64,000 nt of DNA from Deltaproteobacteria bacterium (GCA_038043525.1 JBBTBW010000016.1:14713-78712); one strand, 5' to 3'; shown: positions 11,618-27,380, counted from the first letter of the stretch. The notes: generated by a model from the sequence alone, not told the origin. Numbers and translations are program-made.

Positions 11618-11689
11618 GCAGGTATCTGCCTCCGGTATGTTCTATTGTTTTTTGGCTTGATTATCGCGTCGAGCGTCTGCTGTGATCCG

Positions 11690-12778
11690 TCAGACCGCCC
11701 TGTATTTGTAAAAAGCCGCGCAGGTGCCTTCAGAAGATACCATGCACGGGCCTACCGGGAATTCAGGGGTGCAGACCTTGGCGAAAAGAGGGCATCCTTC
11801 AGGCCTGATGAGGCCTTTAAGCACTGAGCCGCAGGCGCAGCCTTTAGGTTCTTCGTCTATCCCGGGTGCGATCGAGAATCTCTTTTGAGCGTCAAACCCT
11901 GAGTAGCTATCGTTTATGGCAAGGCCGCTCCCTGGGATGTTGCCTATCCCCCTCCACAGCGCATCGGCAGGGACAAAGACCTCGGCTATGACCTCCTGTG
12001 CCTTTGTGTTGCCTTCCCACCTGACGACCCTCTCGTATTGTATCTCGATCTCATTCCTTCCTTCTTCGAACTGCCTTATGAGCATGTATATCCCGTGCAA
12101 AGCGTCGAGCGGCTCGAAGCCTGCGACCACGCACGGCGCATTGAATTCAGAGGAGATGAAGCCGTAGGCCCTCGCGCCGATGATGGCGGTGACATGCCCT
12201 GGGCATAAAAAGCCGTCTATGTCGAGTTCTCCAGCCACGAGAAGGGCCCTCATCGCTGGCGGTGTGAGCTTATGGAGCGATAAGACGGAGAAGTTTTTGA
12301 GACCCTCTTTTTTAGCGGCGATTATAGTCGCGGCGACTGTAGGCGCGGTCGTCTCGAAGCCTACGGCGTACATGACGACCTCTTTGTCAGGGTTCTGTCT
12401 GGCGATATCGAGGGAGCCAAGGGCGGAATAGACGACGCGTATGTCGGACCCGTTGGCCCGCTCCTGTTGGAGGCTCGTCTTCGATCCCGGGACCTTCATC
12501 ATATCTCCGAATGTAGCGATGATGACACCGGGGGTGACCCTTGCAAAATCTATTATCCGGTTGATGTCAGAGGCGGACGTGACGCATACAGGGCACCCCG
12601 GCCCGGAGATGAGCCTTATGTTGGCGGGAAGCGCCTGGCGTATGCCGAACCGTGAGATGGCGTGTGTGTGGGTGCCGCATATCTCCATTATGGAGACGTC
12701 CTTCGTTGATATCTCGGCAATCTTTCGTATAAGCCCCTGCGCAAGCTCTTTTTGTCTGAACTCGTCTAAGTATCTCAT
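11690..12778 (-). CDS. hypD: hydrogenase maturation protein HypD
   Basis: CGTHTHAI, GPGCPVC and C-terminal CxxC...C motifs of HypD. Confidence 0.9.
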   Translation of the reverse strand: MRYLDEFRQKELAQGLIRKIAEISTKDVSIMEICGTHTHAISRFGIRQALPANIRLISGPGCPVCVTSASDINRIIDFARVTPGVIIATFGDMMKVPGSKTSLQQERANGSDIRVVYSALGSLDIARQNPDKEVVMYAVGFETTAPTVAATIIAAKKEGLKNFSVLSLHKLTPPAMRALLVAGELDIDGFLCPGHVTAIIGARAYGFISSEFNAPCVVAGFEPLDALHGIYMLIRQFEEGRNEIEIQYERVVRWEGNTKAQEVIAEVFVPADALWRGIGNIPGSGLAINDSYSGFDAQKRFSIAPGIDEEPKGCACGSVLKGLIRPEGCPLFAKVCTPEFPVGPCMVSSEGTCAAFYKYRAV

Positions 12779-12993
12779 GATCTGCCCATCGCCTCGGCTA
12801 TGAGACGCAAGGTCTCTTCAGCCTTTTCGGTATCGAGCCTCTCTATGGCGAAACCGGCATGTACTATTACGTAGTCCCCGATAGAGGCCTCCCTCATAAG
12901 CTCGATGCTGCAGTCTTTTTTAGTGCCGCCTATCTCCACCTTGGCGAATGGGCCGTCTACTGATATTATCTTTGCCGGTATGCCGAGACACAT
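12775..12993 (-). CDS. hypC: hydrogenase maturation protein HypC
   Basis: MCLGIPAKI N-terminus (essential Cys2) on a ~70-aa OB-fold protein; GGAGG SD upstream; 4-nt overlap with hypD. Confidence 0.9.
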   Translation of the reverse strand: MCLGIPAKIISVDGPFAKVEIGGTKKDCSIELMREASIGDYVIVHAGFAIERLDTEKAEETLRLIAEAMGRS

Positions 12994-12996
12994 CTG

Positions 12997-15339
12997 CTAA
13001 CCTCCTTTCATCAGTTCCCAGGCGACAGCCGCCTGGCCGAGAGCTACCCCTCCGTCGTTCGAAGGGACCTGCTCATTTATATATACCTTGAAACCCTCTC
13101 TGGCAAGAGAGTCCATTGAGAGCGAAAGGAGGAGGCGGTTCTGGAAGGCGCCTCCGCTTAATGCCACGTCGCTTATGCCTGTAGCCTCGGCCATGGGTAT
13201 AAGGGTCTTAGTGATAATCGAGGCGAGGGTCTGATGGAACTTCGCGGCGATCTCAGAGGGAGTTTTTCCGTCAGAAACGTCCGCGACTATGGATCTTATC
13301 ATCTGAGCCAGGTCTATAGCCGTGATGCGCTCGGTAGAGCGCAAACCGTTATTCTCTATCTCGAAAGGGTAAGGGGCCGCCCGTTCGATGGGGTACTCTC
13401 TTGCCGCGGCCTCAAGGTTGACGGCGGCCTCTGCCTCGTAGGTTATCCTGTCTCTTATGCCGGCAAGCGAGGCGACGGCATCAAAGAGCCTTCCGGCGCT
13501 CGATGTCAGAGGCGTGTTGATGTCCTCATCCAGCATCTTCATTATGACTGCGCCTTCGGGTGTTGCGAACCTTGGGAAGTGTTTTTTTATGACCTCAATG
13601 GATCTTTCGCCATAAGCCTGCCGCAGATAAGAAAGGGCCATCCTCCACGGCTCTTTTACAGCCATCTCTGCGCCCGGGAGTCCAGTAGTGCCGAGGTGCG
13701 CGACCCTTTTGAAGGCCGACCTGTCGCATACGAAAAACTCTCCGCCCCAGACAGTGCCGTCTGTGCCGTAGCCTGTGCCGTCGAACGCGACCCCGAAGAT
13801 CTTTTTTCTGATCCCGTGTTCAGCCATCACGCCCGCGATGTGCGCGTGGTGGTGCTGGACCTCGACTATCCTGCCGACAGGTATCCCTTCGGATGCGGCG
13901 TACTCTGAGGCAAACGCGCTGGTGGCGTATCCCGGGTGCATGTCCCTTGCTATGATAGAAGGGTTTGACTTGAAAGAGGACCTGAGGTTCCTAAGGCTCT
14001 CTTTATAAAATTCGAGGGCGCCGGCGTTTTCCATGTCTCCTATATGGGTGCTCATGATGGCGAAGCGTCCCTTTGTAAGGCAGAAGGTATTTTTAAGCTC
14101 AGGGCCTGTCGCAAGTATATCGGCAGTATCTTCACCGAGGTCTATCGCTCCGGGGACAAAGCCCCTGGCCCTCCTTGAAAGGGAGACTCGCTTTCCGGTT
14201 ATCCTTGCGATCGAATCATCGACGCGCATATATATGTCCCTGTCGTGGAGTAGGAAGAAATCTGCCATGCCGGAGAGTTTTTCTACCGCGTCTTTGTTGG
14301 ATGTGACGATAGGCTCATCTGCCCTGTTGCCGCTCGTCATTACAAGGGCATTGAATTTTGCGCCGCTCAGGAGTATATGGTGCAAAGGGGTGTACGGGAG
14401 CATCACCCCGTATGCGGAATTGCCGGGCGCGACATGGACCGAAAGGGACCCGGTCTGTTTTTTTCCTAGAAGGACTATGGGCCGTGTCCGTTCTTCGAGG
14501 AGGTCTCTTTCCTCCGCTGAGACCTCAGCAAACCCTTCTACGGCAGATACGTCAACTGACATCACAGCGAATGGCTTGTTCGACTGAGACGCCTTTGTAA
14601 GAGAGCTTCTCTTTGAAGTACGAAGTCTTTTGACCGCCTCGTCGTTTTCAGCGTCGCACGAGAGGTGAAAACCTCCAATCCCCTTGATCGCTATGATCCT
14701 GCCTTCTTGCAAGAGCCTTACCGCCTCGTCGATTGCAGGACTGTTGACCCTTGAGACAGGCTTGCCTGTACCGTCAACGAGCCATGCCTTCGGGCCGCAT
14801 ATCTCGCAGGCGTTAGGCTGAGCGTGGAAGCGTCTGTCAGAAGGGTCGTGATATTCGGCGTCGCACGCAGGGCACATCATGAACCCAGCCATCGTCGTAT
14901 TCGGCCTGTCGTACGGCATATCTTTGATTATCGAATAGCGTGGGCCGCAGTTGGTGCAGTTTATGAAAGGGTAGAGGTGTCTCCTGTCGTTAGGGTCGAA
15001 TAGCTCGGCAAGGCACTCGGCACATACCGCAAAGTCAGGTGAGATAAGACCGAAGGCCCCTGCAAAGGAGACGGATTCCCTTATGGAGAATCCTGTGACA
15101 TCTCCGGTTAGAAAACATGGCTCTGTACGCAGGCCCGTTATCCTTGAAAGGGGCGGCGCGTTGCTTTTCAGCTCTTCAACGAACCTGTCGAGTCTGTCTC
15201 CGTACGCCTCTATTACGACGCCCTCGGAGTCGTTCAAGCAAAAGCCTCTTATCGAATGGGAGACAGCGAGGTTGTAGACGAACGGCCTGAAGCCTACGCC
15301 CTGGACGACCCCGGTGATATGTATCCGTATCCCGTCCAT
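12997..15339 (-). CDS. hypF: carbamoyltransferase HypF
   Basis: Acylphosphatase-like N-terminus (VQGVGFRPFV), two CxxC-x18-CxxC Zn fingers, YrdC/Sua5-like and Kae1-like domains. Size (780 aa) is typical. Confidence 0.9.
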   Translation of the reverse strand: MDGIRIHITGVVQGVGFRPFVYNLAVSHSIRGFCLNDSEGVVIEAYGDRLDRFVEELKSNAPPLSRITGLRTEPCFLTGDVTGFSIRESVSFAGAFGLISPDFAVCAECLAELFDPNDRRHLYPFINCTNCGPRYSIIKDMPYDRPNTTMAGFMMCPACDAEYHDPSDRRFHAQPNACEICGPKAWLVDGTGKPVSRVNSPAIDEAVRLLQEGRIIAIKGIGGFHLSCDAENDEAVKRLRTSKRSSLTKASQSNKPFAVMSVDVSAVEGFAEVSAEERDLLEERTRPIVLLGKKQTGSLSVHVAPGNSAYGVMLPYTPLHHILLSGAKFNALVMTSGNRADEPIVTSNKDAVEKLSGMADFFLLHDRDIYMRVDDSIARITGKRVSLSRRARGFVPGAIDLGEDTADILATGPELKNTFCLTKGRFAIMSTHIGDMENAGALEFYKESLRNLRSSFKSNPSIIARDMHPGYATSAFASEYAASEGIPVGRIVEVQHHHAHIAGVMAEHGIRKKIFGVAFDGTGYGTDGTVWGGEFFVCDRSAFKRVAHLGTTGLPGAEMAVKEPWRMALSYLRQAYGERSIEVIKKHFPRFATPEGAVIMKMLDEDINTPLTSSAGRLFDAVASLAGIRDRITYEAEAAVNLEAAAREYPIERAAPYPFEIENNGLRSTERITAIDLAQMIRSIVADVSDGKTPSEIAAKFHQTLASIITKTLIPMAEATGISDVALSGGAFQNRLLLSLSMDSLAREGFKVYINEQVPSNDGGVALGQAAVAWELMKGG

Positions 15340-16002
15340 TCAGGGCCTGCCTGCGCAACTGAGCTTGGCAAGGTAGTCGGAGAGGGCTTCTATCCCGGCC
15401 CCTGTCCTGCACGATGTCTCGAATATGGCGAGACCCGGGTTTATCTTAAGGGCGTTTGCCCTTGCCCTTTTGATGTCGAAGTCGGTAAACGGCGCAAGGT
15501 CTGTCTTGTTTATAACAAGGATATCCGAGGCTGAGAAGATGGCAGGGTATTTAAGCGGTTTGTCATCGCCCTCGGCGGTAGAAAGGATGGTCGCCATCAT
15601 ATCTTCCCCGAGGTCGTACTCCGCAGGGCAGACCATGTTGCCGACGTTTTCTATGATAAGTAGCCTGACCCCGGGGTTGCCGAAGACCCAGTCGAGCGCG
15701 TGGCCTACCGCGTGCGCGTCCAAATGGCAGGCCTTGCCCGTAGTGATCTGTTTCGCCGGGATGCCGCTTCTTAAGACCCTCTGACTGTCGAGGTCCGTCT
15801 GAAGATCGCCCTCGATGACTAAGGTATTCAGCCTGGGTTTGAGAAAAGGGGCGAGAGCCTCGATGAGGGAGGTCTTTCCTGCCCCCGGAGAGCTGACCAT
15901 GTTGATCGAAAAAATCCCGCGGGACTTGAGAGCCGCCCTGTTTGCCGAGGCGAGCTCGTTATTCCTTGCAAGGACCTTCTCTTCTATGAGTATCTCGTGC
16001 AT
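15340..16002 (-). CDS. hypB: hydrogenase nickel-incorporation GTPase HypB
   Basis: SPGAGKTSL P-loop and ENVGNMVCP of HypB; stop abuts the hypF start. Confidence 0.9.
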   Translation of the reverse strand: MHEILIEEKVLARNNELASANRAALKSRGIFSINMVSSPGAGKTSLIEALAPFLKPRLNTLVIEGDLQTDLDSQRVLRSGIPAKQITTGKACHLDAHAVGHALDWVFGNPGVRLLIIENVGNMVCPAEYDLGEDMMATILSTAEGDDKPLKYPAIFSASDILVINKTDLAPFTDFDIKRARANALKINPGLAIFETSCRTGAGIEALSDYLAKLSCAGRP

Positions 16003-16017
16003 CGGCCTCCGATGGGG

Positions 16018-16359
16018 CTAAAGCGCGTCGATAGAGACTATGTCAAGCTCGGTGCCGGCTATCTTTTCAACGTCCGTGCCGGAACAGGCCGGGCATATCA
16101 ACGCGAAATCAGTTATCTTCCATGTAGTCGCGCACCCGGAGCACCTGCCTGTGAGCGGCACGCCTTCGATCTCGAGTGTAGCTCCTTCGAGTTCGGTCTT
16201 TTTGATAGAGGCGTCAAAGCAGAACCTGAGCGATTCCGGGTCGATGGCCGTAAGCTCTCCTATCCGGAGCTTTACGGATAGGAGGCGCTTAAAATAGCTC
16301 TTTTTCATCTCTCCACGGATTATATCGATGATATCTTCCGTTATCGACATCTCGTGCAT
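16018..16359 (-). CDS. hypA: hydrogenase nickel-insertion protein HypA
   Basis: MHEMSI N-terminus (His2), C-terminal CxxC-x12-CxxC Zn site. Confidence 0.9.
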   Translation of the reverse strand: MHEMSITEDIIDIIRGEMKKSYFKRLLSVKLRIGELTAIDPESLRFCFDASIKKTELEGATLEIEGVPLTGRCSGCATTWKITDFALICPACSGTDVEKIAGTELDIVSIDAL

Positions 16360-16369
16360 ATCAGACCCT

Positions 16370-16864
16370 TCAGCCCTTCTTTTTAACGAAGAAGCCTGCT
16401 GCTGTAAGCTCAGAGGCGATCGCCCCTGCGACCTCAGGGAGCAGCCTTTCCATTGTATCTGTCAGTGTAAGGCCCGGGCAGACCTTTTCAGGAACGACGC
16501 CTATGACTGATGTCTCAGGCGCTCTCCCTTCAAAGGCCGCAAGCGCTAGAAATTCCCTGACCCCCACACCGTGCGCCGTCGTGAGGGTGGAATCGCCTTT
16601 GAGTATATCATCTGATTTGAGACGGCGGATGGAGCCTACCCTGCTGCCGTCTTTTATCGCGTCGACTATGACGGCATGGGTGAACCCGCAGAGTATATCG
16701 GCGAGCTTTGCCCCTGCGGTGCCGCCGTCAAGGCATTCGATCTCGCCGCCTGTAGAGTATAGACGTTCAAAGGCCTCGACAGAGCGCACACCTACCCCGT
16801 CGTCTCTCATGAGTATGTTGCCGATGCCGAGTACCAGCGCCTTTTTTTCAGGTCTTTTCTTCAT
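16370..16864 (-). CDS. [NiFe]-hydrogenase maturation endopeptidase (HyaD/HybD/HycI family)
   Basis: LVLGIGNILMRDDGVGV N-terminus and DAIKDGSRVG motif of hydrogenase maturation proteases. First gene of the minus-strand operon. Confidence 0.85.
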   Translation of the reverse strand: MKKRPEKKALVLGIGNILMRDDGVGVRSVEAFERLYSTGGEIECLDGGTAGAKLADILCGFTHAVIVDAIKDGSRVGSIRRLKSDDILKGDSTLTTAHGVGVREFLALAAFEGRAPETSVIGVVPEKVCPGLTLTDTMERLLPEVAGAIASELTAAGFFVKKKG

Positions 16865-17166
16865 CTTATGCCGATCGGAGAGGCAGTATCATCCCTGCCG
16901 GTGACCTGTCTCAGCTTGAGAAGCTCGCGACAAGTATCAAAGAGATAACGGCGATATTTACAATCGCCCCGAGAAGTATTACGATGTCCACCGGTGATGT
17001 GATATGTCTTTTAAGTTTTCGCAGCATCCGGATAGATTAATCCAGTACGGTTTTTTTGTCAATGAGGCCGCGGACATCATCTGCCACCTCTTTCGGCAGG
17101 CAGACGCACATTAAAATGTTGCCGGCACTCGAACTGCCTACGCCGTGGCGGCGATAACCGGGGGGT

Positions 17167-17197
17167 TTGTGGTCAGGTATTCTCTTGTCTTTATAAT
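17167..17197 (+). promoter_or_regulatory. candidate promoter for bd-like oxidase cluster
   Basis: Perfect TATAAT at 17192-17197, with a weak -35 (TTGTGG) 19 nt upstream, in a 428-bp divergent intergenic region. Confidence 0.25.
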
Positions 17198-17292
17198 ATC
17201 TCTTCTGGCGTCAGCAGGTTTTTTCATCCTGTTGGATATCTTTTTTTTCGACCTTCAGGGGTTGACCCTCATATTCAGGGGCTGAGATCTCT

Positions 17293-19275
17293 ATGCTGAT
17301 ATCGGGATATATGATGAGGAAGATAATAAGAGCGTTTCGCCCTCTGTCGGTCATGGCCTTCGGGCTGATTGTCTGCGCTCTGATGATATGCGTGCTTTTT
17401 GTACCTTCTGTTGCCCTGTCCTCTGAGAAGGCCGTTACATCCGGCTCAGGGGCTGAGGCAGTGGTGCAGTCAGTTCGACCCGGCCTTGCGTCAGCCGGGC
17501 AGGACCCTTCTCCTCCAGCGCCTCTTTCTGCGTCTCTCAGTTCAGCGCCAGATTATGTAAGCGGGGCAGTTGGGGTAAATGCGGCCGTCGGGAAAGGCGA
17601 GGAAGGGCAGGGCGCGCCGCAGCTCAAGGCTGGGGATTATCCGAAGATAAGGGGAGTTAACGGCAGGGTCGCCGTCTGGCTTGCGGCGCAGATGCACCTC
17701 TGGTTTGCCGCCTTCGTTCTTGCCGTTCCGATATTCGTCCTTCTCATAGAAGTCATCGGCGTCTATACCGGTAGCGACAGGTATGACGATATGGCGTACG
17801 AGTTCATACGCGTCTCCATGACCGCCTATTCAGTCACGGCTATTACAGGCGGAGTACTGCTACTCGGCCTTGTCGTCTTTTATCCGGATCTCATGAAGTA
17901 CCTCTCGCGCATCTTCGCCCCTACGATGATCATCTATGCCGTCCTTTTCTTCGTCGAGACAGGGGCGCTATACGTCTATTATTACGGCTGGCGCTCTATG
18001 AGAAGAGGGAGGCTCAAATGGGCGCATCTCGGCGTAGGGTTGGTATTGAACACGGCAGGGACCTCTCTCATGCTTATTGCAAACGCATGGGTGACGTTCA
18101 TGATGACCCCTTCAGGGGTGGGGCCTTCCGGGATCTTTGACGGCAACGTATGGCACGCCGTTAACAATCACCTCTGGTCGCCGATGAACCTCCACAGGTT
18201 CATCGCCAACATAGCCTACGGCGGGTCTATCGTCGGGGCCTACGCCGCTTACAGGTTCTTAAGTGCAAGGACCGAAGAGGCGAGAGCGCACTACGACTGG
18301 ATGGGTTATACCGCCAACCTCATCGCCATAGGGGCTCTGCTGCCGCTCCCGTTCGCAGGGTACTGGCTCACAGCCGAGATATACGCCTACAGCCAGCAGA
18401 TGGGGATAAACCTGATGGGCGGGGTCTTCGCGTGGCTCTTCATAATACAAGCTGTCATAATCGGGGCGCTTTTTCTGGCGGCCAATTATTATCTCTGGTG
18501 CGGCTTTGAAAGAAGCGAGGGAGGCCGCCGTTATACGCCTTATATAAAGTATATAGCCTTAGCCCTGCTCGCATCTTTTCTCGTATGGTTCACTCCTCAC
18601 TCGCTTGTAATGACTCCGTCCGAGGCGGCCCGGTTAGGCTCACAGTACCATCCGTGGCTCGCGCCGCTGGGGCTGATGCCTGCAAAGAACATAGCTGTCA
18701 ACGTCATGCTCCTTGCGACGTTCCTGAGTTTTCTCTTCTACCGGAGGACGAACAGGGTCGCTGTCGTAGGGTGGGCAAAGACCGGCAGCGCAATCCAGGC
18801 CGCCGTCTTTTGCGCGGGGCTTATAAACATAGTCGTCCTCGGTGTCTATTACGGGTATTATACGAACTCCGTCTACAAGGTCGCCTCGTCCGTTCCTCAG
18901 GTAGCGACTACCCTTGCGGTCATCATCGGGATACTTGTTATCGAAAGGCTGGTCTTTAAGGGGGCGAGGGAGGTCGGGCCTTTTAAATGGGGCAGGATGC
19001 CGGGTAGAAGCCAGTACGCATTGGTCCTTATAGCCGTATCTTTTACGTGGCTGATGGGGCTAATGGGTTTCATACGCTCGGCGATAAGACAGAACTGGCA
19101 CGTCTACTCGGTCATGAAAGATGCGTCCGTAGACGCCTTTACCCCGACTATAGCTTACGCGGCAAACGTGGTATCCATCGGCACGGTAGCCTTCATGTCT
19201 ATCGTGGTCTTCATATTCTGGCTGAGCCGGAAAGGGCCCAGTGACAGCGGCAAGGGCGTAAGTGATGAAGAATAA
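17293..19275 (+). CDS. cytochrome bd-like (CydA-like) polytopic membrane protein with N-terminal extension
   Basis: About 14 predicted TM helices. Segment GRVAVWLAAQMHLWFAAFVLAVPIFVLLIEVIG resembles the CydA N-terminus (RWQFA.T..FH..FVP). TM1 is followed by a Ser/Ala/Pro-rich spacer (residues ~40-110). Function inferred. Confidence 0.6.
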   Translation: MLISGYMMRKIIRAFRPLSVMAFGLIVCALMICVLFVPSVALSSEKAVTSGSGAEAVVQSVRPGLASAGQDPSPPAPLSASLSSAPDYVSGAVGVNAAVGKGEEGQGAPQLKAGDYPKIRGVNGRVAVWLAAQMHLWFAAFVLAVPIFVLLIEVIGVYTGSDRYDDMAYEFIRVSMTAYSVTAITGGVLLLGLVVFYPDLMKYLSRIFAPTMIIYAVLFFVETGALYVYYYGWRSMRRGRLKWAHLGVGLVLNTAGTSLMLIANAWVTFMMTPSGVGPSGIFDGNVWHAVNNHLWSPMNLHRFIANIAYGGSIVGAYAAYRFLSARTEEARAHYDWMGYTANLIAIGALLPLPFAGYWLTAEIYAYSQQMGINLMGGVFAWLFIIQAVIIGALFLAANYYLWCGFERSEGGRRYTPYIKYIALALLASFLVWFTPHSLVMTPSEAARLGSQYHPWLAPLGLMPAKNIAVNVMLLATFLSFLFYRRTNRVAVVGWAKTGSAIQAAVFCAGLINIVVLGVYYGYYTNSVYKVASSVPQVATTLAVIIGILVIERLVFKGAREVGPFKWGRMPGRSQYALVLIAVSFTWLMGLMGFIRSAIRQNWHVYSVMKDASVDAFTPTIAYAANVVSIGTVAFMSIVVFIFWLSRKGPSDSGKGVSDEE

Positions 19276-19834
19276 TTTTATATGGATAGCTCTGTTCGGC
19301 ATAGGGCTCGTCATTGCCTACGCGCTCTTTTCGAACCTCTACATACCATCTTCGGTCCCTGATCGGCAGACGGAAGATATCTCATCCGATACAGGCGTTT
19401 TGACTGGTGATGAGCTTGCGGCCTTCGGCGAGGAGATTTATTCCGGCAAGGGCTCTTGCGGACTTTGCCACGACGCTGTCGGAGATAGAGCTCCTGCACT
19501 TGATTCTATCGCAGTGAGAGCCGCCGAAAGGCTTTTGGACCCCCGCTACAAGGGCAAGGCCACTGACGCCGTAGGGTATATCTACGAGTCTATGGCAGAC
19601 CCGTCTGCTTATGTCGTTAAGGGCTACGGGGTAGCAGGGACAGATGATGCGGTCAGTCCGATGCCGGGCGTGCTTGGAGGCCAGATAGAGCTTACCGAAG
19701 TAGAGGTGACGGCTGTCATCGCGTATCTTCAAAAGAGGGCAGGGGTCGAGGTTACGGCAGGTTCTGCCCAAGGACCACTCATGCAGGGAAACGCTCCTGC
19801 GCCTGATACAACCGGCCTGATAAAATCGAGATGA
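19265..19834 (+). CDS. membrane-anchored monoheme cytochrome c
   Basis: N-terminal TM anchor and a single CGLCH heme-binding motif. ATG at 19265 overlaps the upstream stop. Confidence 0.8.
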   Translation: MKNNFIWIALFGIGLVIAYALFSNLYIPSSVPDRQTEDISSDTGVLTGDELAAFGEEIYSGKGSCGLCHDAVGDRAPALDSIAVRAAERLLDPRYKGKATDAVGYIYESMADPSAYVVKGYGVAGTDDAVSPMPGVLGGQIELTEVEVTAVIAYLQKRAGVEVTAGSAQGPLMQGNAPAPDTTGLIKSR

Positions 19835-19838
19835 CCAG

Positions 19839-20609
19839 ATGAAGATAGGAAGATTATTACGGCTCGTTATATTGACGTCCCTGGCGTATCTGCTCTTTAA
19901 GATCCCGGGCATCATCCTCGGAAAGCCGATCCCGTCGTCCATCATACAGATGTATATGTTTTTTGTTATCGTGACGATACTCCTTGTCATGACCGCTACT
20001 GAGGATTCGGCCCAGAGGCTCTTTGGGCCGATAAAAGCCATTGCGAGCGGCCAGTCCCCTTCAATGAGGCGCATTCGCACGGCTCTGTTTTTTATCATGC
20101 CGCTCTTTGCAGCGTATCTGACCTATCTCTCCATGAGACCTTCGACAGACCCGCCCGTGGAGCTCCGCTCAGTGCATCCGGCGCCTCCGGCTCTGATGAC
20201 CGCCTACGAAAAGACCTTTGACCTCGCTCTTCTTGAAAACCCGTTCCGGCCTTTAGAGAAGGAGGACCCGCTTCTCTTTCGGTCGATTGTCGCCGAGGGC
20301 GGGGAGATATATTTCAAGAACTGTTTTTTCTGCCACGGGGACAAGCTTGACGGCAGAGGCCATTATGCAAGGGCTTTAAACCCGGCGCCTCTGCCATTCC
20401 AAGGTGGCGATACGATAGCGCAGCTCCAGGAATCGTATGTATTCTGGAGGATAGTCAAGGGCGGGCCGGGACTCCCTAAGGAGGCAGGGCCTGCTGTTTC
20501 TTCCATGCCCGCCTGGGAGGGGATGCTTACCGAAGAAGATGTCTGGAAGACGATGCTCTTTATATACGACTACACCGGCAATACGCCGAGATCATGGGTG
20601 AACAGGTGA
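19839..20609 (+). CDS. membrane-bound monoheme cytochrome c
   Basis: Three N-terminal hydrophobic helices then a CFFCH heme-binding motif in a C-terminal soluble domain. Confidence 0.8.
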   Translation: MKIGRLLRLVILTSLAYLLFKIPGIILGKPIPSSIIQMYMFFVIVTILLVMTATEDSAQRLFGPIKAIASGQSPSMRRIRTALFFIMPLFAAYLTYLSMRPSTDPPVELRSVHPAPPALMTAYEKTFDLALLENPFRPLEKEDPLLFRSIVAEGGEIYFKNCFFCHGDKLDGRGHYARALNPAPLPFQGGDTIAQLQESYVFWRIVKGGPGLPKEAGPAVSSMPAWEGMLTEEDVWKTMLFIYDYTGNTPRSWVNR

Positions 20610-20620
20610 AGGGCTATTCA

Positions 20621-22162
20621 ATGCGTCAGTTCATCTTGATATCGATATCTGCGGCTATCGGGTTGTTTTTTGCAGGCGGCTCGAATCTGAGCCATGCCGA
20701 CGAGGCTGTATCTCCGGCTGTAAGGGATGCCTACGTAAAGAGGTGCTCGTGGTGCCACGGCCTTGAAGGCGCCGGAGACGGCCCTGCATCAGGGTACTTA
20801 AACCCGGCGCCAAGGGACTTTACCCTTGGTATGTATAAGTGGAAGACGACGCCTTATGACGAGTACTCGCCGTCGGACGGAGATCTTGAGAGGATGATCG
20901 CAGGTAGATCAGAAGGCGGCTGGGACGGTCTGAAGGATACGTCCATGCCAGGCTGGTCGGATACCATCACAAGGCAGGAGATAAGGGATATCGGCGCCTA
21001 CATAAAGACCTTCGCCAGCCTCGGCCCGTCTGTCAACAAGGTGATAGAGCCGCCTTCAGGCATGAAGGGAGCGTCGAAGAATGTTCTCGAGCAAGGCAGG
21101 AAGCTCTTTCTCGACAGGTGCTCTGAATGCCACGGCGAGCTTGGCAGGGGAGACGGCACAAAGAGGCTCAAAGACGACTGGGGCGGGCGAACGTGGCCGA
21201 GGAACCTTACAAAGGATTGGACGTTCAGGGCAGGCAGTGATGTAAAGGATATCTACAGGAGGATCATGGCAGGCATCCCGGGCACACAGATGCCGAGTTT
21301 TGCCGACCCTCAGAGCAAAAAGAGGCTCTCTGATGAAGAGGCGTGGGCTGTAGCCTCGTACGTCAAAACGTTAAACGCGCCGCACAAGAGGCCTGTCGAG
21401 GGAGCCGTCATAAACGCCGTTAAGATAGACACCCCGGTGCCGACGAGCGTTGACGACGAAAGATGGGAGAAGGCGGCGTACGCGAGTTTTTATACACTTC
21501 CTCAGGTAATAGCCGGAGAGAGGCACTTCACCCCGACTATCAACTCGATGTCTGTAAAGGCTCTTTATAATGACATGGATATCGCCTTTCTTGTCGAATG
21601 GGACGATCCGACGCGCGGCGTGCCGGGAGATGTAAAGTCAATGGAGATCGCCGGAGGCGAGGTCTTTGTTGACGGGGCGGCGATGCAGTTCACTGTAAAG
21701 CCGTCAGGTACCCTGAGGCCGTATTTCGGGATGGGAGACGGAATGCACCCGGTGAATCTCTGGATGTGGCAGTCCGCAGAAGGGGCCGGGGCGGTGCGGC
21801 TTTTGAACGCCAGAGGGGTTAAGGAGATAGATGAGCGTGACGCGCCGATGGTCGGGCTTACTGCCTCTGGTGTGTATTCAAACGGCCAATGGAAAGCGAT
21901 TTTTACAAGGCCGCTTTTGACGGAAGACCCGTCTGTTGATATCCAGTTCAGCCCCGATACCTTCATCCCTGTCGCATTGTCAGCGTGGGACGGGTCAAAC
22001 AATGAGAAGGGCTCGAAGCACGTCTTGACGCAGTGGCAGTGGGTAAGGCTTGGCAGGGATGAGGGCGGGTCGCCTTACCTCTGGCCTGCTCTCGCAGGTG
22101 TAGCAGTGCTGGCGATAGAGCTTTTGTGGGTCCGCAGTGCGAGGAAGAGGCGGGAGGGGTAG
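20621..22162 (+). CDS. diheme cytochrome c fused to ethylbenzene-dehydrogenase-gamma-like (EB_dh) heme-b domain, C-terminal TM anchor
   Basis: Signal peptide (MRQFILISISAAIGLFFAGGSNLSHA), CSWCH and CSECH motifs. The C-terminal ~250 aa (YNDMDIAFLVEWDD...MQFTVKP...GMGDGMHPVNLWMWQ) resembles the EB_dh/NarH-gamma-like domain. Ends in a hydrophobic anchor. GAAGGG SD upstream of the ATG at 20621. Confidence 0.7.
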   Translation: MRQFILISISAAIGLFFAGGSNLSHADEAVSPAVRDAYVKRCSWCHGLEGAGDGPASGYLNPAPRDFTLGMYKWKTTPYDEYSPSDGDLERMIAGRSEGGWDGLKDTSMPGWSDTITRQEIRDIGAYIKTFASLGPSVNKVIEPPSGMKGASKNVLEQGRKLFLDRCSECHGELGRGDGTKRLKDDWGGRTWPRNLTKDWTFRAGSDVKDIYRRIMAGIPGTQMPSFADPQSKKRLSDEEAWAVASYVKTLNAPHKRPVEGAVINAVKIDTPVPTSVDDERWEKAAYASFYTLPQVIAGERHFTPTINSMSVKALYNDMDIAFLVEWDDPTRGVPGDVKSMEIAGGEVFVDGAAMQFTVKPSGTLRPYFGMGDGMHPVNLWMWQSAEGAGAVRLLNARGVKEIDERDAPMVGLTASGVYSNGQWKAIFTRPLLTEDPSVDIQFSPDTFIPVALSAWDGSNNEKGSKHVLTQWQWVRLGRDEGGSPYLWPALAGVAVLAIELLWVRSARKRREG

Positions 22163-22195
22163 CATCTGTAAGGCGCCTTTTGCGGTTTCAAGTTT

Positions 22196-22270
22196 ATAAC
22201 TTGAACCCAATGATCCGTAAAGGCGCATGCTAAATTCAAGGGGCAGGTTGTAAGCCTGCTCCTTGAAGAA
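22196..22270. repeat. left imperfect direct repeat flanking GmrSD insertion
   Basis: ACTTGAACCCAATGATCCGTAAAGGCGCATGCTAAATTCAAGGGGCAGGTTGTAAGCCTGCTCCTTGAAGAAG is ~80% identical to 24255-24328. Confidence 0.5.
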
Positions 22271-22368
22271 GTCTATAGATGCTGTGTTTGCGGCAGACCT
22301 CCTAGACAGGGAAGCTTACGGTTTTGCGGGTCTTAGAGGAAATGACAAGACGGGCATGAACGACTTCT

Positions 22369-24144
22369 TCATTGCTCGATAGCTTTTTCAAGATCAGCAA
22401 TTGGCAAGGTAATACCATAGGATGCCAACAACATAGTAAGCGTCTCTTTATGGTTCCTTTTTAGATCATCCAACGTCCAATTATTGAAGGTTTGTAAAAT
22501 TCTTACGGAGTTGCTAAAAAGTTCTACGTTTTTCTGAAAGTATCCTTCCCTTTTTTGCCGGTAATCCTGATTGCCTTGTGCGGTATTCTTCCTCCGAGAC
22601 AGGAGAATGAGATTGCCGAGCCTGTTAGTCCATTTGTCTCGCTCCGGTCCTGTAAAATCAGCAACCCATTGACTACTTGTATCCGGTGTCTGAGGAAGAA
22701 TATGCTCAATGCTTATTGTTTCAGGTGGTGAAAATTTAGTTGTGTGCCCATGATAGGCAAGATCGATCTTTAAAATGATATATCTAGCATAACCACGGCC
22801 ATAAATTGCCCCTGTGAGCGATCGAAGAATATCCTGAGTTTCCACTTTGAAAACGGGAGAAGCAAACAGGGCATTTTGATCGGCTGCACCTTCGATCTCT
22901 TTGAGGATGGCATTTGCATTTTCGATACGTTTTGTTGGTGCCAATCCAATTATCCAATCAGAAGAAAACTTCACGTCTAAAAGGTGCAAGAACTTGAGTA
23001 AGTTTTCCGTTTTATATTTTGCGTAATAGCATAGAAGGGGTGCAATCCAGTAATCAGCCTCAAAACCAATTCGCATCAGGGTAAGTTGGTTGTGAAGTTC
23101 GAAGCTGTTTGTCAAATTGTAAGTGTCATCTTCAAAAAGACTAAGGTAGTGCTTATAATGACTTTCGACAAATTCGAAAGTATCTTCCCCTTTTTTTAAT
23201 AGCGGAGTTTTATTGATATAGGTTTTCGTATTACGGTCAAATTCTTTTGGAGCGTAGATATTTTCCTCAAATTCTTTAAGAAGATTGTAGCCTGCTTTCT
23301 GTTTGACAAGCACGGTTCTGAGGTGAGAGAGAAAGTTGTCGAACTCTTCAGTAAAATATCCCTCAATATTCTCCCATGTTTTTGCATATTTGGTTCTGGT
23401 GTTGTTGTCTTTAATTCTGGCGAGGTTCTCTGCCTTAAGAATGTCGCTATTGCGTAGCTTGATGCCTCGGTTGTTCATAACTGTAAACAGATGAAAGGCA
23501 TCTTCAAGCTCTTCAGTCGCAACATAGATCATCAGAACGTTGGAGCGTAAAAACGGAAAGAACGTTTCCAGAGATTTGCCATTCTTGAAAAAGCCTCTAA
23601 TGGTCAGAATGGCATTGGCCATATTTCTGATGGACATGTCTTCATCGTTTTCTTGAGAAAGATGCTTTATTTCTTCGTCTTTGAGTGTACCTCCATCTGC
23701 CTTGACGTACTTATCAACAAAATTCTTCACTGTATCGCGGATATCAAAGACAATACGACTGCGCTCGGGAATATTGTCGTCGGGATTTGCCATCTGATAA
23801 ATAGTTTCCCGGCAGGTCTTGATCCGCGCCTTATTGTCTGCTGGTGTTAGATCACGAACCACAGCAGTTATCAGGAAGAGGGTTGTCAGCCGTTGTTGGC
23901 CGTCAAGAAGGTCATGCTCTTCGTATCTGATATTCCCATCCTGCTTATCCGATTTTTTTAATACCATAGAACCAAGAAAGTACTGAGACCTGGGGTTAGA
24001 TTGACTCGCACGATACACATCATCAAGCAATTCTACAACTTGATCAGCCTCCCAAACATATGGACGCTGGTATTCCGGGATGCGGTACCATTTCAGGAAA
24101 ACATCTTTTACGAAAAGTTTCTCACTTTTAATTTCAGGCGCCAT
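22369..24144 (-). CDS. GmrSD-family type IV restriction endonuclease (DUF262 + DUF1524)
   Basis: N-terminal DUF262/ParB-like motif (EYQRPYVW...DGQQRLTT), C-terminal His-Me/HNH-like DUF1524 (IEHILPQ...NLILLSRRKN). Gene body is conspicuously AT-rich. GAGGTGG SD upstream. Confidence 0.85.
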   Translation of the reverse strand: MAPEIKSEKLFVKDVFLKWYRIPEYQRPYVWEADQVVELLDDVYRASQSNPRSQYFLGSMVLKKSDKQDGNIRYEEHDLLDGQQRLTTLFLITAVVRDLTPADNKARIKTCRETIYQMANPDDNIPERSRIVFDIRDTVKNFVDKYVKADGGTLKDEEIKHLSQENDEDMSIRNMANAILTIRGFFKNGKSLETFFPFLRSNVLMIYVATEELEDAFHLFTVMNNRGIKLRNSDILKAENLARIKDNNTRTKYAKTWENIEGYFTEEFDNFLSHLRTVLVKQKAGYNLLKEFEENIYAPKEFDRNTKTYINKTPLLKKGEDTFEFVESHYKHYLSLFEDDTYNLTNSFELHNQLTLMRIGFEADYWIAPLLCYYAKYKTENLLKFLHLLDVKFSSDWIIGLAPTKRIENANAILKEIEGAADQNALFASPVFKVETQDILRSLTGAIYGRGYARYIILKIDLAYHGHTTKFSPPETISIEHILPQTPDTSSQWVADFTGPERDKWTNRLGNLILLSRRKNTAQGNQDYRQKREGYFQKNVELFSNSVRILQTFNNWTLDDLKRNHKETLTMLLASYGITLPIADLEKAIEQ

Positions 24145-24254
24145 TTACCACCTCGGTTTCTTAAATCATCAGACATCTGTGGACATCCGTGTCTGTGCAA
24201 TCCTTTTAGCATAATGTGGAATGTAAAGCAACCCCCTGTCGGATCAAAATCTGC

Positions 24255-24328
24255 GACTTGAACTGCATGATCAGGAAAGGCGTATGCGAAATCCAAGGAG
24301 CAGGTTGCAAGCTTGCTCTTGCGAAGAA
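24255..24328. repeat. right imperfect direct repeat flanking GmrSD insertion
   Basis: ACTTGAACTGCATGATCAGGAAAGGCGTATGCGAAATCCAAGGAGCAGGTTGCAAGCTTGCTCTTGCGAAGAA, paralogous to 22196-22270. Confidence 0.5.
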
Positions 24329-24334
24329 AACCGC

Positions 24335-24775
24335 TTGTTACTAACCCCACCCAGCCTCCCCTTGTGAGTAAGGGGAGGAGCAAAACCAAAACGGCCTTTG
24401 AATTTAGCCGCTGCTTTTAACAAAACCCGGGTCATGGCGTAGCGAGCCTGACTGAGAGACGTTGAGCAGGTTCTTGTATCTACTGCGAAACGGCTCGAAA
24501 GCGAAGCGAGCCATACCCAAAAGGAGCGCCGAAGCGCAAAGCAAGAGTCAGACCGATGTTTTTCGCAAAGGGGCGTTGTAAAGAAAATCATTCGGCGGGT
24601 GTGACCCGCCCTACCAGACTTGTATCTGCTGCGAAACGGCCGGACAGCGAAAGCGAAGCGAGCCATACCCAAAAGGCGCACGGAAGTGCAAAGCAGGAGT
24701 CAGGCAGATGTTTTTTGTAAGGGCAGTTCGAGCCATACCCAAAAGACGCGCAGAAGTGCAACTCAGCTCTTTGTC
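24335..24775. repeat. block of modular dispersed repeats (palindrome unit A, the TTTGAATTT module, and ~160-nt structured unit C ending in GATGTTTTT)
   Basis: Shares near-identical modules with 32960-33117 and 36965-37590. Example: 24400-24560 is ~90% identical to 37425-37585. No ORF of credible coding quality. Confidence 0.65.
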
Positions 24776-24957
24776 CTCGACCATACCCCGTAAAGAAGCA
24801 GGGCAGTGCCTGCAATGATGAATAGATAACTGACAGGCCCTATCTGCTCGCCTGACTTGATGGCGAGCAGGGAATTCAATCCGCCTGTGAATACAAGCGC
24901 GCACCCGATGAGGCTGCGGCCAGCTCGGTTGGCATTATAACCCTCGTTCCCCTTCAT
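24763..24957 (-). CDS. putative small two-helix membrane protein
   Basis: 64-aa ORF whose ATG directly follows the radical-SAM stop (TAG-ATG), with two hydrophobic segments. Its 3' end runs into the repeat block, so it is speculative. Confidence 0.3.
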   Translation of the reverse strand: MKGNEGYNANRAGRSLIGCALVFTGGLNSLLAIKSGEQIGPVSYLFIIAGTALLLYGVWSRTKS

Positions 24958-26184
24958 CTATCGGCCTGCCCGTTTTCTCAGTGTCGCCATGACCTCAGGC
25001 GTTATCTCGTTCAATCCCTTTGACCTAGCGTATGCCTCTACGCCCTTTTTTATCATCGATCTTAAAAATGAAGGCGCTTTGTCAAGGCGCTCCTGAGCCT
25101 CGGCCGTCCATCTCACAAATGTGCCGGTGATTTTCTCAGAGGCGTTTTTTGACGGAGTGTATACGCACCACGGGTCTTCGCCTGAGAGGCTGTTGCCTGA
25201 AGCAAAGGCGCGGGCCCTGCACCCTCCGCACGTCTCTTTGAATTCGCATCCGCCGCACCTGCCTTCTAGGTCGCGCTTCCTCATTGCTGTAAAGAGGGGG
25301 TCTTTCTCCCAGATATCTTTGAGGGATTTTTCTCCTATGGCAGGTCCTTCCGGTGAGGGAGGTATGTACGGGCACGGGGTGACACGCCCTTCCGGCGTTA
25401 TCCTCATATAACCCGTAGCGGCGATGCATCCGCTCGTGCCGCCTCTTGCCAGCGAGCCGTCAGGATTGATCCTGCCGGCAACTCTCACGATGTGCGGCGC
25501 GCATCTGGCCCTGACCATAACGCCTCCGGCCGTATCGTCTGCCTTTGCGATTTCTTCAAGGACGCCTTCGTATTCCGAAGGAGAGAGGTCGGTCATTTGC
25601 TGGCCTCTGCCTGTGCAGACAAGGAAGAATATGTTTACTCCAGTAGCACCCTTTTCACCGGCGAGCCGTATTACGTCCTTTAGCGACCCTCTGTTCTCTT
25701 TCGTCACTGTCAGGTGGAGTTGGAACGGAAGACCGCTTTCCTTCAGGTTGTCTATTCCTTTTATAGTCGAGAGCCATGCGCCTGGAACCCCTCTGAACCT
25801 GTCGTGTACTTCAGGGGCCGCGCTGTCAAGGCTTACGCCTACGCCTGCGACGTTTGCCTTTATGAGGCTCTCGATTGCGGAAGGGGTCAGGAGCGTGCCG
25901 TTTGTCCCGACTACGACCGAGAGGCCTTTTGATGAGGCGTATGAGGCTATCTCAGGAAGGTCCGGCCTTAAAAGCGGTTCCCCTCCCGTCATGATGACCA
26001 TGGCAGAGGGGTTTATCGAGGCTATCTCATCTACGATCCTGAGGGCTGATCTTGTATCGATGTCAGAGGCGCCTTCGAGCTCTACCGCGCCTAAGTAGCA
26101 GTGGACACACCTCAGGTTGCACCTCTTTGTCAGGTTCCATGAGACGAGAAATGGAGGCGTTGTCATCTCTGGTGTCTCTGGCAT
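24958..26184 (-). CDS. radical SAM/SPASM-domain protein with C-terminal PCP_red-like helical module
   Basis: CNLRCVHCY (CxxxCxxC), SPASM cysteines (CGGCEFKETCGGCRARAF), C-terminal W-TAEAQERLDKAPSFLRSMIKKGVEAYARSKGLNEITPEVM. Confidence 0.85.
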   Translation of the reverse strand: MPETPEMTTPPFLVSWNLTKRCNLRCVHCYLGAVELEGASDIDTRSALRIVDEIASINPSAMVIMTGGEPLLRPDLPEIASYASSKGLSVVVGTNGTLLTPSAIESLIKANVAGVGVSLDSAAPEVHDRFRGVPGAWLSTIKGIDNLKESGLPFQLHLTVTKENRGSLKDVIRLAGEKGATGVNIFFLVCTGRGQQMTDLSPSEYEGVLEEIAKADDTAGGVMVRARCAPHIVRVAGRINPDGSLARGGTSGCIAATGYMRITPEGRVTPCPYIPPSPEGPAIGEKSLKDIWEKDPLFTAMRKRDLEGRCGGCEFKETCGGCRARAFASGNSLSGEDPWCVYTPSKNASEKITGTFVRWTAEAQERLDKAPSFLRSMIKKGVEAYARSKGLNEITPEVMATLRKRAGR

Positions 26185-26186
26185 CC

Positions 26187-27380
26187 TTAGCCTTCCATAT
26201 TCTTTCTGATTTTGCGCATGAACGCCGGGCTTATGGTATTAACGCCGTCTTTCCTGGCGGCATCCTCGACCATGAGCCTGACGACACCCCTTGCGAACAG
26301 GGGGATAGAGTCGAGTATGGAGGTCGCATCTTTTTCCCATACGGGCGCGTCTCCTGTGGCGGTACCTGAGGCGGCTCTTTCCGCCTCTCCATCATATCTC
26401 CTTGACGAGATGAGCAGGTTGCAGCTTGTGCGCTGCAGGCTTCTTTCTGTGAGAGACCCGATATCAAGTGACGGGCTCTCATGCGCCCCGGTCTTTCCGA
26501 GGACGAAGAGAAAGGGGCGGGCCTCTTCGACGTGCCTTATCACCACGTCCGATGGCTTGCCTTCAAGCAGGGTCGTTTTTATGGTGACGGAGTTCTGCTT
26601 AGCTATCATGGAGGCTGTATCAAGGTGGTCCTGATATATGCGTCCGAGGCCCTTGTCTATGACCTCTTCATGGAGACGCTCCTGCTCTGAAAACCTGAAG
26701 AGCCTGCCTGCCTCGTCGGATAATACTCCTCCCAGAGAGCGGAAGGCGTGTCTATGGTAATCGGTGTCGTATGCGCTTATAGCCTCTATCTGCCCGCCGA
26801 ACGCTTTTGAGAGTTCGATTGCTGTTAGTAGCCCTCCGAATGAGCGAGTGGAGCCGTCTATTGCGACGATGATCGAGCCTGAACGGTCCGTATCCACCCT
26901 TGAGATGAGCGTGTCGCAAGGCGCCATCCTTGCCACCCTCGCGCATACGCTGCCGGTCTCGCTATCTCTCGTTTTGCCGAGCCCTGATGAGCCGATGACA
27001 AGAAGGTCGTATCCGCCGCTAGCGGCCTCTTTGATCAGTTCCTCGAAGTTTTTGCCCTCTCTGCTGATCGCATCGGCCTCGACGCCGAGGGTGCGGGCAG
27101 ATGTGAGGAATACGTCGTTATACGAATCAGAGATTATGCGCAGGCCCTTGGATATCAGTGTGTCGTGCACCTCTCTCTGGTCTTTCAGGCGGCTTGTGTC
27201 CTGATACTGGGGGGGCAGGCCTGCCTCCATCTGGCGGAACCTGTCGTTATGGAGGTTTGCCGCGTAGACGTGACAGCCCGTTGCCGCAGCTCCTTCAAAG
27301 CGGGCGATTGCCAGGCCGAGATCCGCGCCTGAGTTTGACTGTGCGGAGTTATCAAGACAGATGAGGATTTTTTTTAGCAT
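26187..27380 (-). CDS. tandem universal-stress-protein (UspA) domain protein with C-terminal PCP_red-like module
   Basis: Two UspA-like alpha/beta domains (ILICLDNS..., IIVAIDGS...) plus a C-terminal W-EKDATSILDSIPLFARGVVRLMVEDAARKDGVNTISPAFM, clearly paralogous to the C-terminus of the downstream radical-SAM protein. Stop lies 2 nt before the next gene's start. Confidence 0.8.
   Translation of the reverse strand: MLKKILICLDNSAQSNSGADLGLAIARFEGAAATGCHVYAANLHNDRFRQMEAGLPPQYQDTSRLKDQREVHDTLISKGLRIISDSYNDVFLTSARTLGVEADAISREGKNFEELIKEAASGGYDLLVIGSSGLGKTRDSETGSVCARVARMAPCDTLISRVDTDRSGSIIVAIDGSTRSFGGLLTAIELSKAFGGQIEAISAYDTDYHRHAFRSLGGVLSDEAGRLFRFSEQERLHEEVIDKGLGRIYQDHLDTASMIAKQNSVTIKTTLLEGKPSDVVIRHVEEARPFLFVLGKTGAHESPSLDIGSLTERSLQRTSCNLLISSRRYDGEAERAASGTATGDAPVWEKDATSILDSIPLFARGVVRLMVEDAARKDGVNTISPAFMRKIRKNMEG

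Follow-up and report, generated by a model that had tools for sequence, protein, structure and literature searches.

Layout of the four-gene module

We analysed a stretch of 64,000 nucleotides (64 kb, hereafter the window) from an NCBI metagenome-assembled genome (MAG) named "Deltaproteobacteria bacterium" (GCA_038043525.1, JBBTBW010000016.1:14713-78712). Four co-directional open reading frames (ORFs) on the + strand, here called g1 to g4, span positions 17293-22162, with the coordinates given in an earlier prediction made from the sequence (the original prediction). They encode a CydA-like membrane protein and three cytochromes. We see about an even chance that the products of all four form a single membrane complex acting as a quinol-independent cytochrome c:O2 oxidoreductase. 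The genes, with their transmembrane (TM) segments, are:

g1, 17293-19275, + strand: 660 aa, OR-N2-type CydA-like membrane subunit (from Pfam, PDB and Foldseek matches and signature residues)
g2, 19262-19834, + strand: 190 aa, monoheme cytochrome c with one N-terminal TM anchor
g3, 19839-20609, + strand: 256 aa, monoheme cytochrome c after three N-terminal TM helices
g4, 20594-22162, + strand: 522 aa, signal peptide, diheme cytochrome c, NxrC/EbdC-type heme b domain and C-terminal TM anchor

The junctions are tight: g1 and g2 overlap by 14 nt, g2 and g3 are separated by 4 nt, and g3 and g4 overlap by 16 nt. Such overlaps and a 4-nt spacer are the layout expected for a translationally coupled operon, in agreement with the coupling originally proposed. 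The heme c motif CxxCH is absent from g1, present once each in g2 and g3, and twice in g4. Among ORFs of at least 100 aa in the window, only g2-g4 and an endonuclease III-like gene carry it.

The membrane subunit

Judged from its sequence and its predicted structure, g1 is a non-canonical member of the cytochrome bd superfamily with a CydA fold, as had been suspected. It matched the Pfam family Cyt_bd_oxida_I (PF01654) with 71.6 bits (cutoff 26.2), covering profile positions 3-226 of 418, that is, the N-terminal half only. Over TM1-5, phmmer aligned it with solved CydA chains (9r2g_A, 3e-8; 5doq_A, 4e-5). An AlphaFold2 model was built with 42 homologues (predicted local distance difference test, pLDDT, 68.9; predicted TM-score, pTM, 0.63). 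In a Foldseek search of the PDB with this model, the ten best matches were all CydA chains (E 2e-7 to 3e-4, probability 1.0). CydB chains were weaker matches, for which the fold shared by CydA and CydB may be a simple source. No NCBIfam family matched g1 at E <= 1, so that it has no curated name.

The model begins with an N-terminal hydrophobic anchor or signal helix (residues 19-36), after which residues 37-103 form a linker that is disordered and not conserved. The core has 13 long helices, spread over residues 124-646, and a short one (352-369). The one N-terminal and 13 core helices bear out the count of ~14 TM segments in the original prediction, and a hydropathy scan agreed. The topology is self-consistent if the N-terminus of the core is periplasmic, as in CydA; the basic C-terminus is then cytoplasmic. 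Three TM helices (352-433) stand where the quinol-binding Q-loop, located between TM6 and TM7 in canonical quinol oxidases, would be, which accords with Lucker et al. 2013 (PMC3578206).

As originally stated, no CydB partner follows g1, the next three genes being cytochromes c (the whole window was not searched with a CydB profile), and the same CydB-less arrangement occurred in all 62 complete related loci. By tblastn, there was no second CydA-like gene in the window. We also rejected two other views of g1. An internal duplication, with the C-terminal half as a fused CydB, was without sequence support (hhalign probability 0.06 between N- and C-terminal half-profiles). Membership of the OR-C family, which has CxxCH in a CydA-like subunit of ~8 TM, disagrees with the zero CxxCH and ~14 TM of g1.

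In the public record, g1 is called "cytochrome ubiquinol oxidase subunit I" (MEK6759955.1) and g4 "c-type cytochrome". Most g1 homologues carry the same ubiquinol oxidase name. Because the quinol-binding Q-loop is absent, this label is misleading for g1 and most of its homologues, and it would distort metabolic reconstructions.

To describe the conserved residues we used an alignment of g1 with 83 homologues from related loci, including paralogues at 42% identity (84 sequences); 141 positions were >=97% identical. g1 reproduced all ten OR-N2 signature positions of Supplementary Table 6 of Murali, Gennis & Hemp, matched by a residue offset of 32-36; the assignment thus compares spacing with the published table, the reference sequence TKS59798.1 not itself being aligned. 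In that Nitrospira sequence the residues are H99, Y183, E190, Y197, Y199, H213, H269, M430/N434, S563 and W569 (Murali et al. 2021). All ten were >=90% conserved in our alignment. The g1 residues and their Escherichia coli CydA equivalents are:

g1 H135: E. coli CydA H19
g1 Y215: E. coli CydA E99 position
g1 E222: E. coli CydA E107
g1 Y229/Y231: Y-x-Y motif
g1 H245: E. coli CydA H126
g1 H301: E. coli CydA H186
g1 M462/N466: E. coli CydA M393
g1 S596: E. coli CydA E445 position
g1 W602: E. coli CydA W441

H135 lies within the CydA-like motif quoted in the original prediction, aligned with the His19/His21 heme ligand in 9r2g_A and 5doq_A, and was conserved in 99-100% of the 84 homologues. Among the four heme-ligand positions that the prediction had named, His19, His186 and Met393 are kept (H135, H301 and M462). 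The fourth, Glu99, has become Tyr215, and Glu445, outside that set, has become Ser596; both changes follow the pattern published for OR-N2. E222 and H245 were 100% conserved; OR-N1 proteins, as opposed to OR-N2, have Gly at the E107 position (Murali et al. 2021). Further invariant residues were H333, H436, H453, H603 and several methionines.

By the model topology, H135, H301, M462 and W602/H603 are located at periplasmic helix ends and E222 and H245 toward the cytoplasmic side. H436, H453 and H603 also fall on the periplasmic side, near the expected heme region. The predicted heme ligands of g1 are H135, H301/M462 and possibly H603, and the predicted proton-channel residues E222 and H245. H603 adjoins the W441 equivalent and could be a ligand replacing Glu445.

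The cytochrome partners

The original prediction of three c-type cytochromes downstream of g1 held in that g2, g3 and g4 all carry CxxCH. It was incomplete for g4, which additionally has an NxrC/EbdC-type heme b domain. In g2, the CxxCH is at residue 66, behind the single TM helix. The window protein and a few relatives are shortened monoheme forms, and most relatives have ~275 aa and a second heme c domain; this longer form, with its second CxxCH, corresponds to the "diheme" partner described for Nitrospina and Kuenenia. In g3, the CxxCH is at residue 162 (Pfam Cytochrome_CBB3, 31 bits, cutoff 27).

g4 has CxxCH at residues 51 and 176 (Pfam Cytochrom_C, 74.7 bits), an EB_dh domain at residues ~291-475 (72.9 bits, cutoff 33.3) and a C-terminal TM helix at ~495-516. 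In the PDB, its diheme part was closest to Kuenenia 6h5l_B (7e-29), which we take to be an NO-binding cytochrome complex. Its C-terminal domain matched NxrC (7b04_C, 8e-14) and EbdC (2ivf_C, 1e-6). The Met108 ligand of EbdC aligns with M380 of g4, and the EbdC Lys201 position is occupied by H476. Among 70 family members, position 380 was H, M or R, and position 476 was H or M. From this alignment, the heme b of the window protein is most likely ligated by Met and His (M380 and H476). We rejected g4 as a genuine gamma subunit of a nitrite oxidoreductase (NXR) or EBDH: its match to TIGR03477 (88.5 bits) is under the cutoff (169.85), and there are no alpha or beta genes at the locus. All heme c domains of g2-g4 and the EB_dh domain are predicted to be periplasmic.

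Conservation of the module

The g1 family is large, with >5000 proteins matched in a database clustered at 90% identity. Among 50%-identity representatives there were 1015 matches at E <= 1e-3 and 179 at E <= 1e-30. A scan using one genome per species gave at least 591 loci with a g1 relative, of which the best 80 were retained for locus counts. The original prediction had treated the four genes as one module. Their order (g1, g2, g3, and the cytochrome c and EB_dh parts of g4) was complete and colinear in 62 of the 80 loci, the remaining 18 being cut by contig ends. None of the 80 broke the order, and a g2 homologue directly followed g1 in 77. With the order intact in 62 loci and broken in none, the arrangement is far beyond chance.

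Carriers come from six bacterial classes or more. Besides "Deltaproteobacteria" MAGs (66-73% identity), they include members of the Alpha-, Beta- and Gammaproteobacteria, Mariprofundaceae, Magnetococcales and Nitrospinota. The module is a general respiratory device and not an NXR accessory, because the unit occurs in at least six classes and the 64-kb window has no nitrite oxidoreductase gene. Cultured carriers were found among the loci, namely Sedimenticola hydrogenitrophicus and Aestuariirhabdus sp.; such carriers outside the nitrifiers make a genetic test of function far easier than in nitrifiers.

In ~35 Gamma- and Alphaproteobacterial loci (L039-L079), g3 and g4 form one in-frame ORF (e.g., L040:9584-12001 and L062:10657-13089). 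The fused protein, of ~800 aa, combines three TM helices at its N-terminus with three CxxCH motifs, the EB_dh domain and the C-terminal anchor. Such a fusion is evidence, of the Rosetta-stone kind, for g3 and g4 acting together. About a dozen loci (L012, L013, L016, L017, L026, L028, L031, L032, L034 and L069) have a second complete paralogous module directly upstream. Its g1 counterpart (~720 aa) shares 42% identity, and R/M occupy the EB_dh ligand positions in place of M/H. Small cytochrome c genes follow this paralogous module (diheme, ~225 aa; monoheme, ~125 aa).

Gene neighbourhood

The other features around the module are:

17170-17197, + strand: candidate sigma-70-type promoter TGGTCA-16-TATAAT, ~95 nt upstream of g1, in a divergent intergenic region of 428 nt
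10574-16864, - strand: hypE, hypD, hypF, hypB, hypA and a HycI-type protease gene, a complete [NiFe]-hydrogenase maturation set, divergent from the module
22369-24144, - strand: GmrSD_N + GmrSD_C type IV restriction-like gene, 43% GC against ~54% around it
24473-24770: non-coding repeat, a 76-nt unit present twice (87% identity, 152-nt spacing), with a 38-nt core present three times
24958-26184, - strand: candidate accessory gene; radical SAM/SPASM protein from the tetrapyrrole-modifying NirJ2/AhbD group, ending in a PCP_red (BchB C-terminal) domain (60.3 bits)
26187-27380, - strand: candidate accessory gene; tandem Usp (91 bits) and C-terminal PCP_red (37.7 bits) protein

The promoter candidate matches 10 of 12 consensus positions and has its position as support; promoter-like sites in the region upstream of g1 were not above shuffle expectation. 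We found no terminator after g4, terminator counts not exceeding those of shuffled sequences, and no Rfam match to structured RNAs in 16000-28000.

Among the window ORFs examined, we recognised no structural genes for a hydrogenase. Two of the related loci (L001 and L002) also have these hyp genes upstream of the module, and the adjacency may be lineage synteny rather than a functional link. Further along the window there are a nuo operon and an H+-pyrophosphatase gene. The window contained no molybdoenzyme, molybdopterin or FeS beta genes, and no genes of N-oxide or halogen metabolism. The GmrSD gene looks like a recent defence-gene insertion, because the radical SAM/Usp pair directly follows g4 in the closest relatives (L001-L003). 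It is flanked by a weak 25-nt inverted repeat (22218-22242 / 24395-24419).

The radical SAM protein matched NirJ2 (292 bits) and AhbD (280 bits) in NCBIfam, both under the 500-bit cutoffs. The Usp-PCP_red gene was always paired with the radical SAM gene. A radical SAM homologue, 44% identical, adjoins the module in other loci, and the pair is a frequent neighbour of the module, as in L001-L003, L010, L013, L016, L082, L084, L087, L110, L112, L127, L131 and others. Of 78 genome loci, 29 had a Usp-PCP_red homologue (cluster C6), as did 9 of the 10 full-flank metagenome loci with a PCP_red-type radical SAM gene. Starting from the module, 18 of 25 full-flank genome loci had a radical SAM, Usp-PCP_red or HemY-type gene within 8 kb, in three arrangements. 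The HemY-type neighbour, often adjacent to the pair as well, is a protoporphyrinogen oxidase (TIGR00562, 236 bits, cutoff 98). In the reverse direction, metagenomes were scanned with an alignment of the radical SAM proteins. The bd-like module was present in 24 of 57 loci with a PCP_red-bearing radical SAM gene, or in 6 of 10 where at least 6 kb was available on both sides, and in none of 23 loci with a radical SAM gene lacking PCP_red. These associations suggest that the radical SAM-PCP_red and Usp-PCP_red pair is dedicated to tetrapyrrole maturation or delivery. Our literature search gave no paper that connects bd-like oxidases with a radical SAM enzyme.

In gammaproteobacterial loci there is also an 800-aa HEAT-repeat protein whose matches are bilin-lyase-like, and 11 loci add a SCO1-like gene. 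A speculative idea, which we regard as rather unlikely, is that the module is no bd oxidase with ordinary hemes but relies on a dedicated cofactor-maturation set encoded next to it. This set would consist of the NirJ2/AhbD-like radical SAM-PCP_red and Usp-PCP_red proteins and, in other lineages, the HemY-like oxidase, the HEAT-repeat lyase-like protein and the SCO1-like copper chaperone. In that case the active site would hold a modified tetrapyrrole, possibly with copper at the invariant periplasm-side H436, H453 and H603, and would be a third chemical solution to respiratory O2 reduction.

In 13 of 25 full-flank Gamma- and Alphaproteobacterial loci (within L039-L079; e.g., L040 12.0-16.7 kb, L061 12.5-17.7 kb and L064 12.8-17.7 kb), four further genes come after the module in the same orientation: two MauG/CCP-like diheme genes, an AioB-like Rieske gene and an AioA-like molybdopterin gene, often with a SCO1-like gene between. 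This gene content is diagnostic for the iodate reductase idrABP1P2 according to the Idr paper, which describes the genes flanking idrABP1P2 as poorly conserved. Among top-ranked papers, there was no overlap between iodate reductase and cytochrome bd. Together, the tetrapyrrole-type radical SAM/PCP_red and the iodate-reductase-like neighbours offer concrete hypotheses on the cofactor content and the physiological partners of the module.

Proposed function

From the fold of g1, the conservation of its ligands, the domain architectures, the topology, the synteny and the g3-g4 fusion, we infer a complex with the following electron path. Periplasmic donors, either soluble cytochromes c or a periplasmic dehydrogenase, would reduce a membrane-tethered wire facing the periplasm. 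This wire would have five hemes: four c-hemes (one in g2, one in g3, two in g4) and the Met/His-ligated b-heme in the NxrC-like domain of g4. Electrons would then pass to the periplasm-side low-spin heme of g1 (His301/Met462, at the heme b558 position) and on to the His135-ligated active-site heme, where O2 would be reduced to water. Protons would come from the cytoplasm via the retained Glu222/His245 channel, so that turnover would build a membrane potential without pumping. Quinol would not be a substrate, because three TM helices replace the Q-loop. The absent Q-loop and the cytochrome c partners support the original suggestion of an electron route other than that of quinol-fed cytochrome bd. 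The original prediction had allowed for either a terminal oxidase or a quinol:cytochrome c module. By analogy with bd oxidase structures, an N-side proton path to a P-side heme would be productive only for an exergonic, proton-consuming reduction. We favour O2 as the acceptor because the E222/H245 channel is invariant, because expression is very high in nitrite and Mn oxidisers, and because most carriers are lithotrophs of microaerophilic or interface habit (Nitrospinota, Mariprofundaceae, Magnetococcales, Sedimenticola and Thiodiazotropha).

Several points weigh against an O2-reducing, cytochrome c-fed complex. The same cluster has been reported in strictly anaerobic anammox bacteria (PMC3578206; PMC6606698). 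Directly upstream of iodate-reductase-like genes, as in the 13 full-flank loci, a quinol-to-cytochrome-c feeder would be equally sensible. The window offers no pointer to the electron donor. With E99 replaced by Y215 and E445 by S596, the classical b595/d pair may not exist. Met462 was assigned by the residue-offset match to the published table, not by structural superposition, and the AlphaFold2 model of g1 is of moderate confidence only (pLDDT 68.9). Reviews from 2024 and 2025 describe the subunit composition, O2 affinity and function as still unconfirmed; according to them, no OR-N member has been purified or assayed.

The main rival, possible though doubtful, is a cytochrome c:quinone oxidoreductase like alternative complex III (ACIII), with a new quinone site in the helices replacing the Q-loop. 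It would carry electrons from quinol via cytochrome c to a periplasmic reductase (such as Idr), or push electrons from nitrite, Fe or Mn uphill to quinone for autotrophy. Mobile respiratory islands usually bring their own quinol dehydrogenase, which counts for such an enzyme. It better accounts for the position upstream of idrP1P2BA-like genes in the 13 of 25 full-flank loci and for the presence in anaerobic anammox bacteria, and lithoautotrophic carriers need reverse electron flow. The extra helices of g1 offer many invariant polar residues (H333, D335, E362, H436, E444, H453, K465 and R485), and this role has been proposed for Nitrospina, Nitrospira and anammox bacteria (PMC3578206; PMC6606698). 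However, the canonical quinol-site residues are all absent, the Pfam match ending at profile position 226. With a cytoplasmic proton path, moreover, the reduction of quinone by cytochrome c would be unfavourable on two counts, and oxidising quinol would waste proton-motive force. Most carriers are also expected to own bc1 or ACIII already. The public annotation of g1 as subunit I of an ordinary quinol-oxidising cytochrome bd agrees with its Pfam family, and is almost certainly wrong. Besides matching half of the profile, g1 has 14 instead of 9 TM helices and cytochrome c partners, and the loss of the Q-loop, the CydB-less locus and the replacement of Glu99 and Glu445 exclude a canonical quinol oxidase.

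The complex could also be fed by cytochrome c and reduce or detoxify another small oxidant, such as nitric oxide (NO), H2O2, hypohalite or a chlorite-like species, which we consider improbable. Canonical bd oxidases handle NO and H2O2 according to the review literature, and the cluster is present in anammox bacteria, where NO is described as an intermediate. Two MauG/CCP-like peroxidase genes and Idr-like genes adjoin the module in many loci. The similarity of the g4 diheme domain to the presumed NO-binding complex of Kuenenia also fits. The window, however, has none of the N-oxide or halogen metabolism genes that would go with such a role, and the high constitutive expression in aerobic nitrite and Mn oxidisers better suits a main respiratory role. 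A shade less probable again is a non-catalytic role, in which the complex would anchor a periplasmic NXR-like molybdoenzyme to the membrane and collect its electrons, with g4 as the true gamma subunit. The EB_dh/NxrC-like domain of g4 points that way, and alt_NxrC_2 has been proposed as an NXR anchor (PMC6606698). Against it, the 64-kb window has no DMSO-reductase-family alpha/beta genes, g4 scores below the TIGR03477 cutoff, and the module occurs in many lineages not known as nitrite oxidisers. The strictly conserved heme ligands and proton-channel residues of g1 favour catalysis.

Comparison with known systems

With canonical CydAB(X) (E. coli bd-I, 6RKO; G. thermodenitrificans, 5DOQ), the module shares the fold of the first five TM helices, the heme ligands, part of the cytoplasmic proton channel and the periplasm-side hemes. 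It differs in that g1 has five extra TM helices, lacks the Q-loop and quinol site as well as CydB and CydX, and has Glu99 and Glu445 replaced; its partners are c-type cytochromes and a periplasmic b-heme domain. Its functional logic would be that of cbb3 oxidase (CcoNOP), in which anchored mono- and diheme cytochromes c feed a membrane catalytic subunit, and the setting is likewise that of microaerophiles. g1 is unrelated to the catalytic subunit of CcoNOP, with no heme-copper family match found. With NxrC (7B04_C) and EbdC (2IVF_C), the C-terminal domain of g4 shares the EB_dh fold and the predicted Met ligand (M380, aligned with EbdC Met108). Unlike them, g4 has His476 in place of the Lys ligand, is fused to a diheme cytochrome c and a TM anchor, and has no alpha or beta subunits nearby.

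Loci with a bd-like oxidase and cytochromes c are known from nitrite oxidisers and are uncharacterised, so that the literature agrees with the original prediction on this point. The window module belongs to the cluster already described there as the OR-N2 operon, TO_1 or bd-like_3-alt_NxrC_2. The prediction had missed this existing classification (OR-N2; TO_1), as well as the heme b domain of g4 and the spread beyond nitrite oxidisers. In N. moscoviensis the cluster comprises bd-like_3, two membrane-bound cytochromes c and alt_NxrC_2, and is kept in Nitrospina and anammox bacteria (Mundinger et al. 2019, PMC6606698). It is among the 40 most transcribed genes of N. moscoviensis, and alt_NxrC_2 is listed as a 66.8-kDa protein with a signal peptide, a TM helix and a diheme cytochrome c (Table 2, PMC6606698). 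TO_1 of Ca. Manganitrophus, whose expression ranks at the 98th percentile, combines a bd-like oxidase with two cytochromes c and a periplasmic cytochrome b (10.1101/2021.11.15.468770). Judged by the published descriptions, bd-like_3/alt_NxrC_2 of Nitrospira and TO_1 have the same gene content and domain architecture as the window module; our sequence comparison with loci of the nitrite-oxidiser type used Nitrospinota MAG loci only (57-61% identity). Nitrite oxidisers and anammox bacteria have the cluster among nxr genes, whereas the window has no molybdoenzyme gene within 64 kb.

Complexes of the OR-N bd-like type presumably serve as main terminal oxidases in Nitrospira, Nitrospina and the Mn-oxidising Manganitrophus, organisms that are key to the nitrogen and metal cycles. 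The window adds an uncultured groundwater "Deltaproteobacteria" MAG to the hosts of this invariant four-gene unit. OR-N2 was defined by a 14-TM CydA homologue without the quinol site (Murali et al. 2021). g1 agrees in both features, in keeping H19, E107, H126, H186, the M393 equivalents, W441 and Y-x-Y, and in the changes of E99 to Y and E445 to S. As in the OR-N2 operon, several cytochromes c and an EbdC homologue accompany it. The window module thus shows no difference in kind from OR-N2; it is set apart by its short monoheme g2 and by its host, a "Deltaproteobacteria" MAG and not a member of the Nitrospirota.

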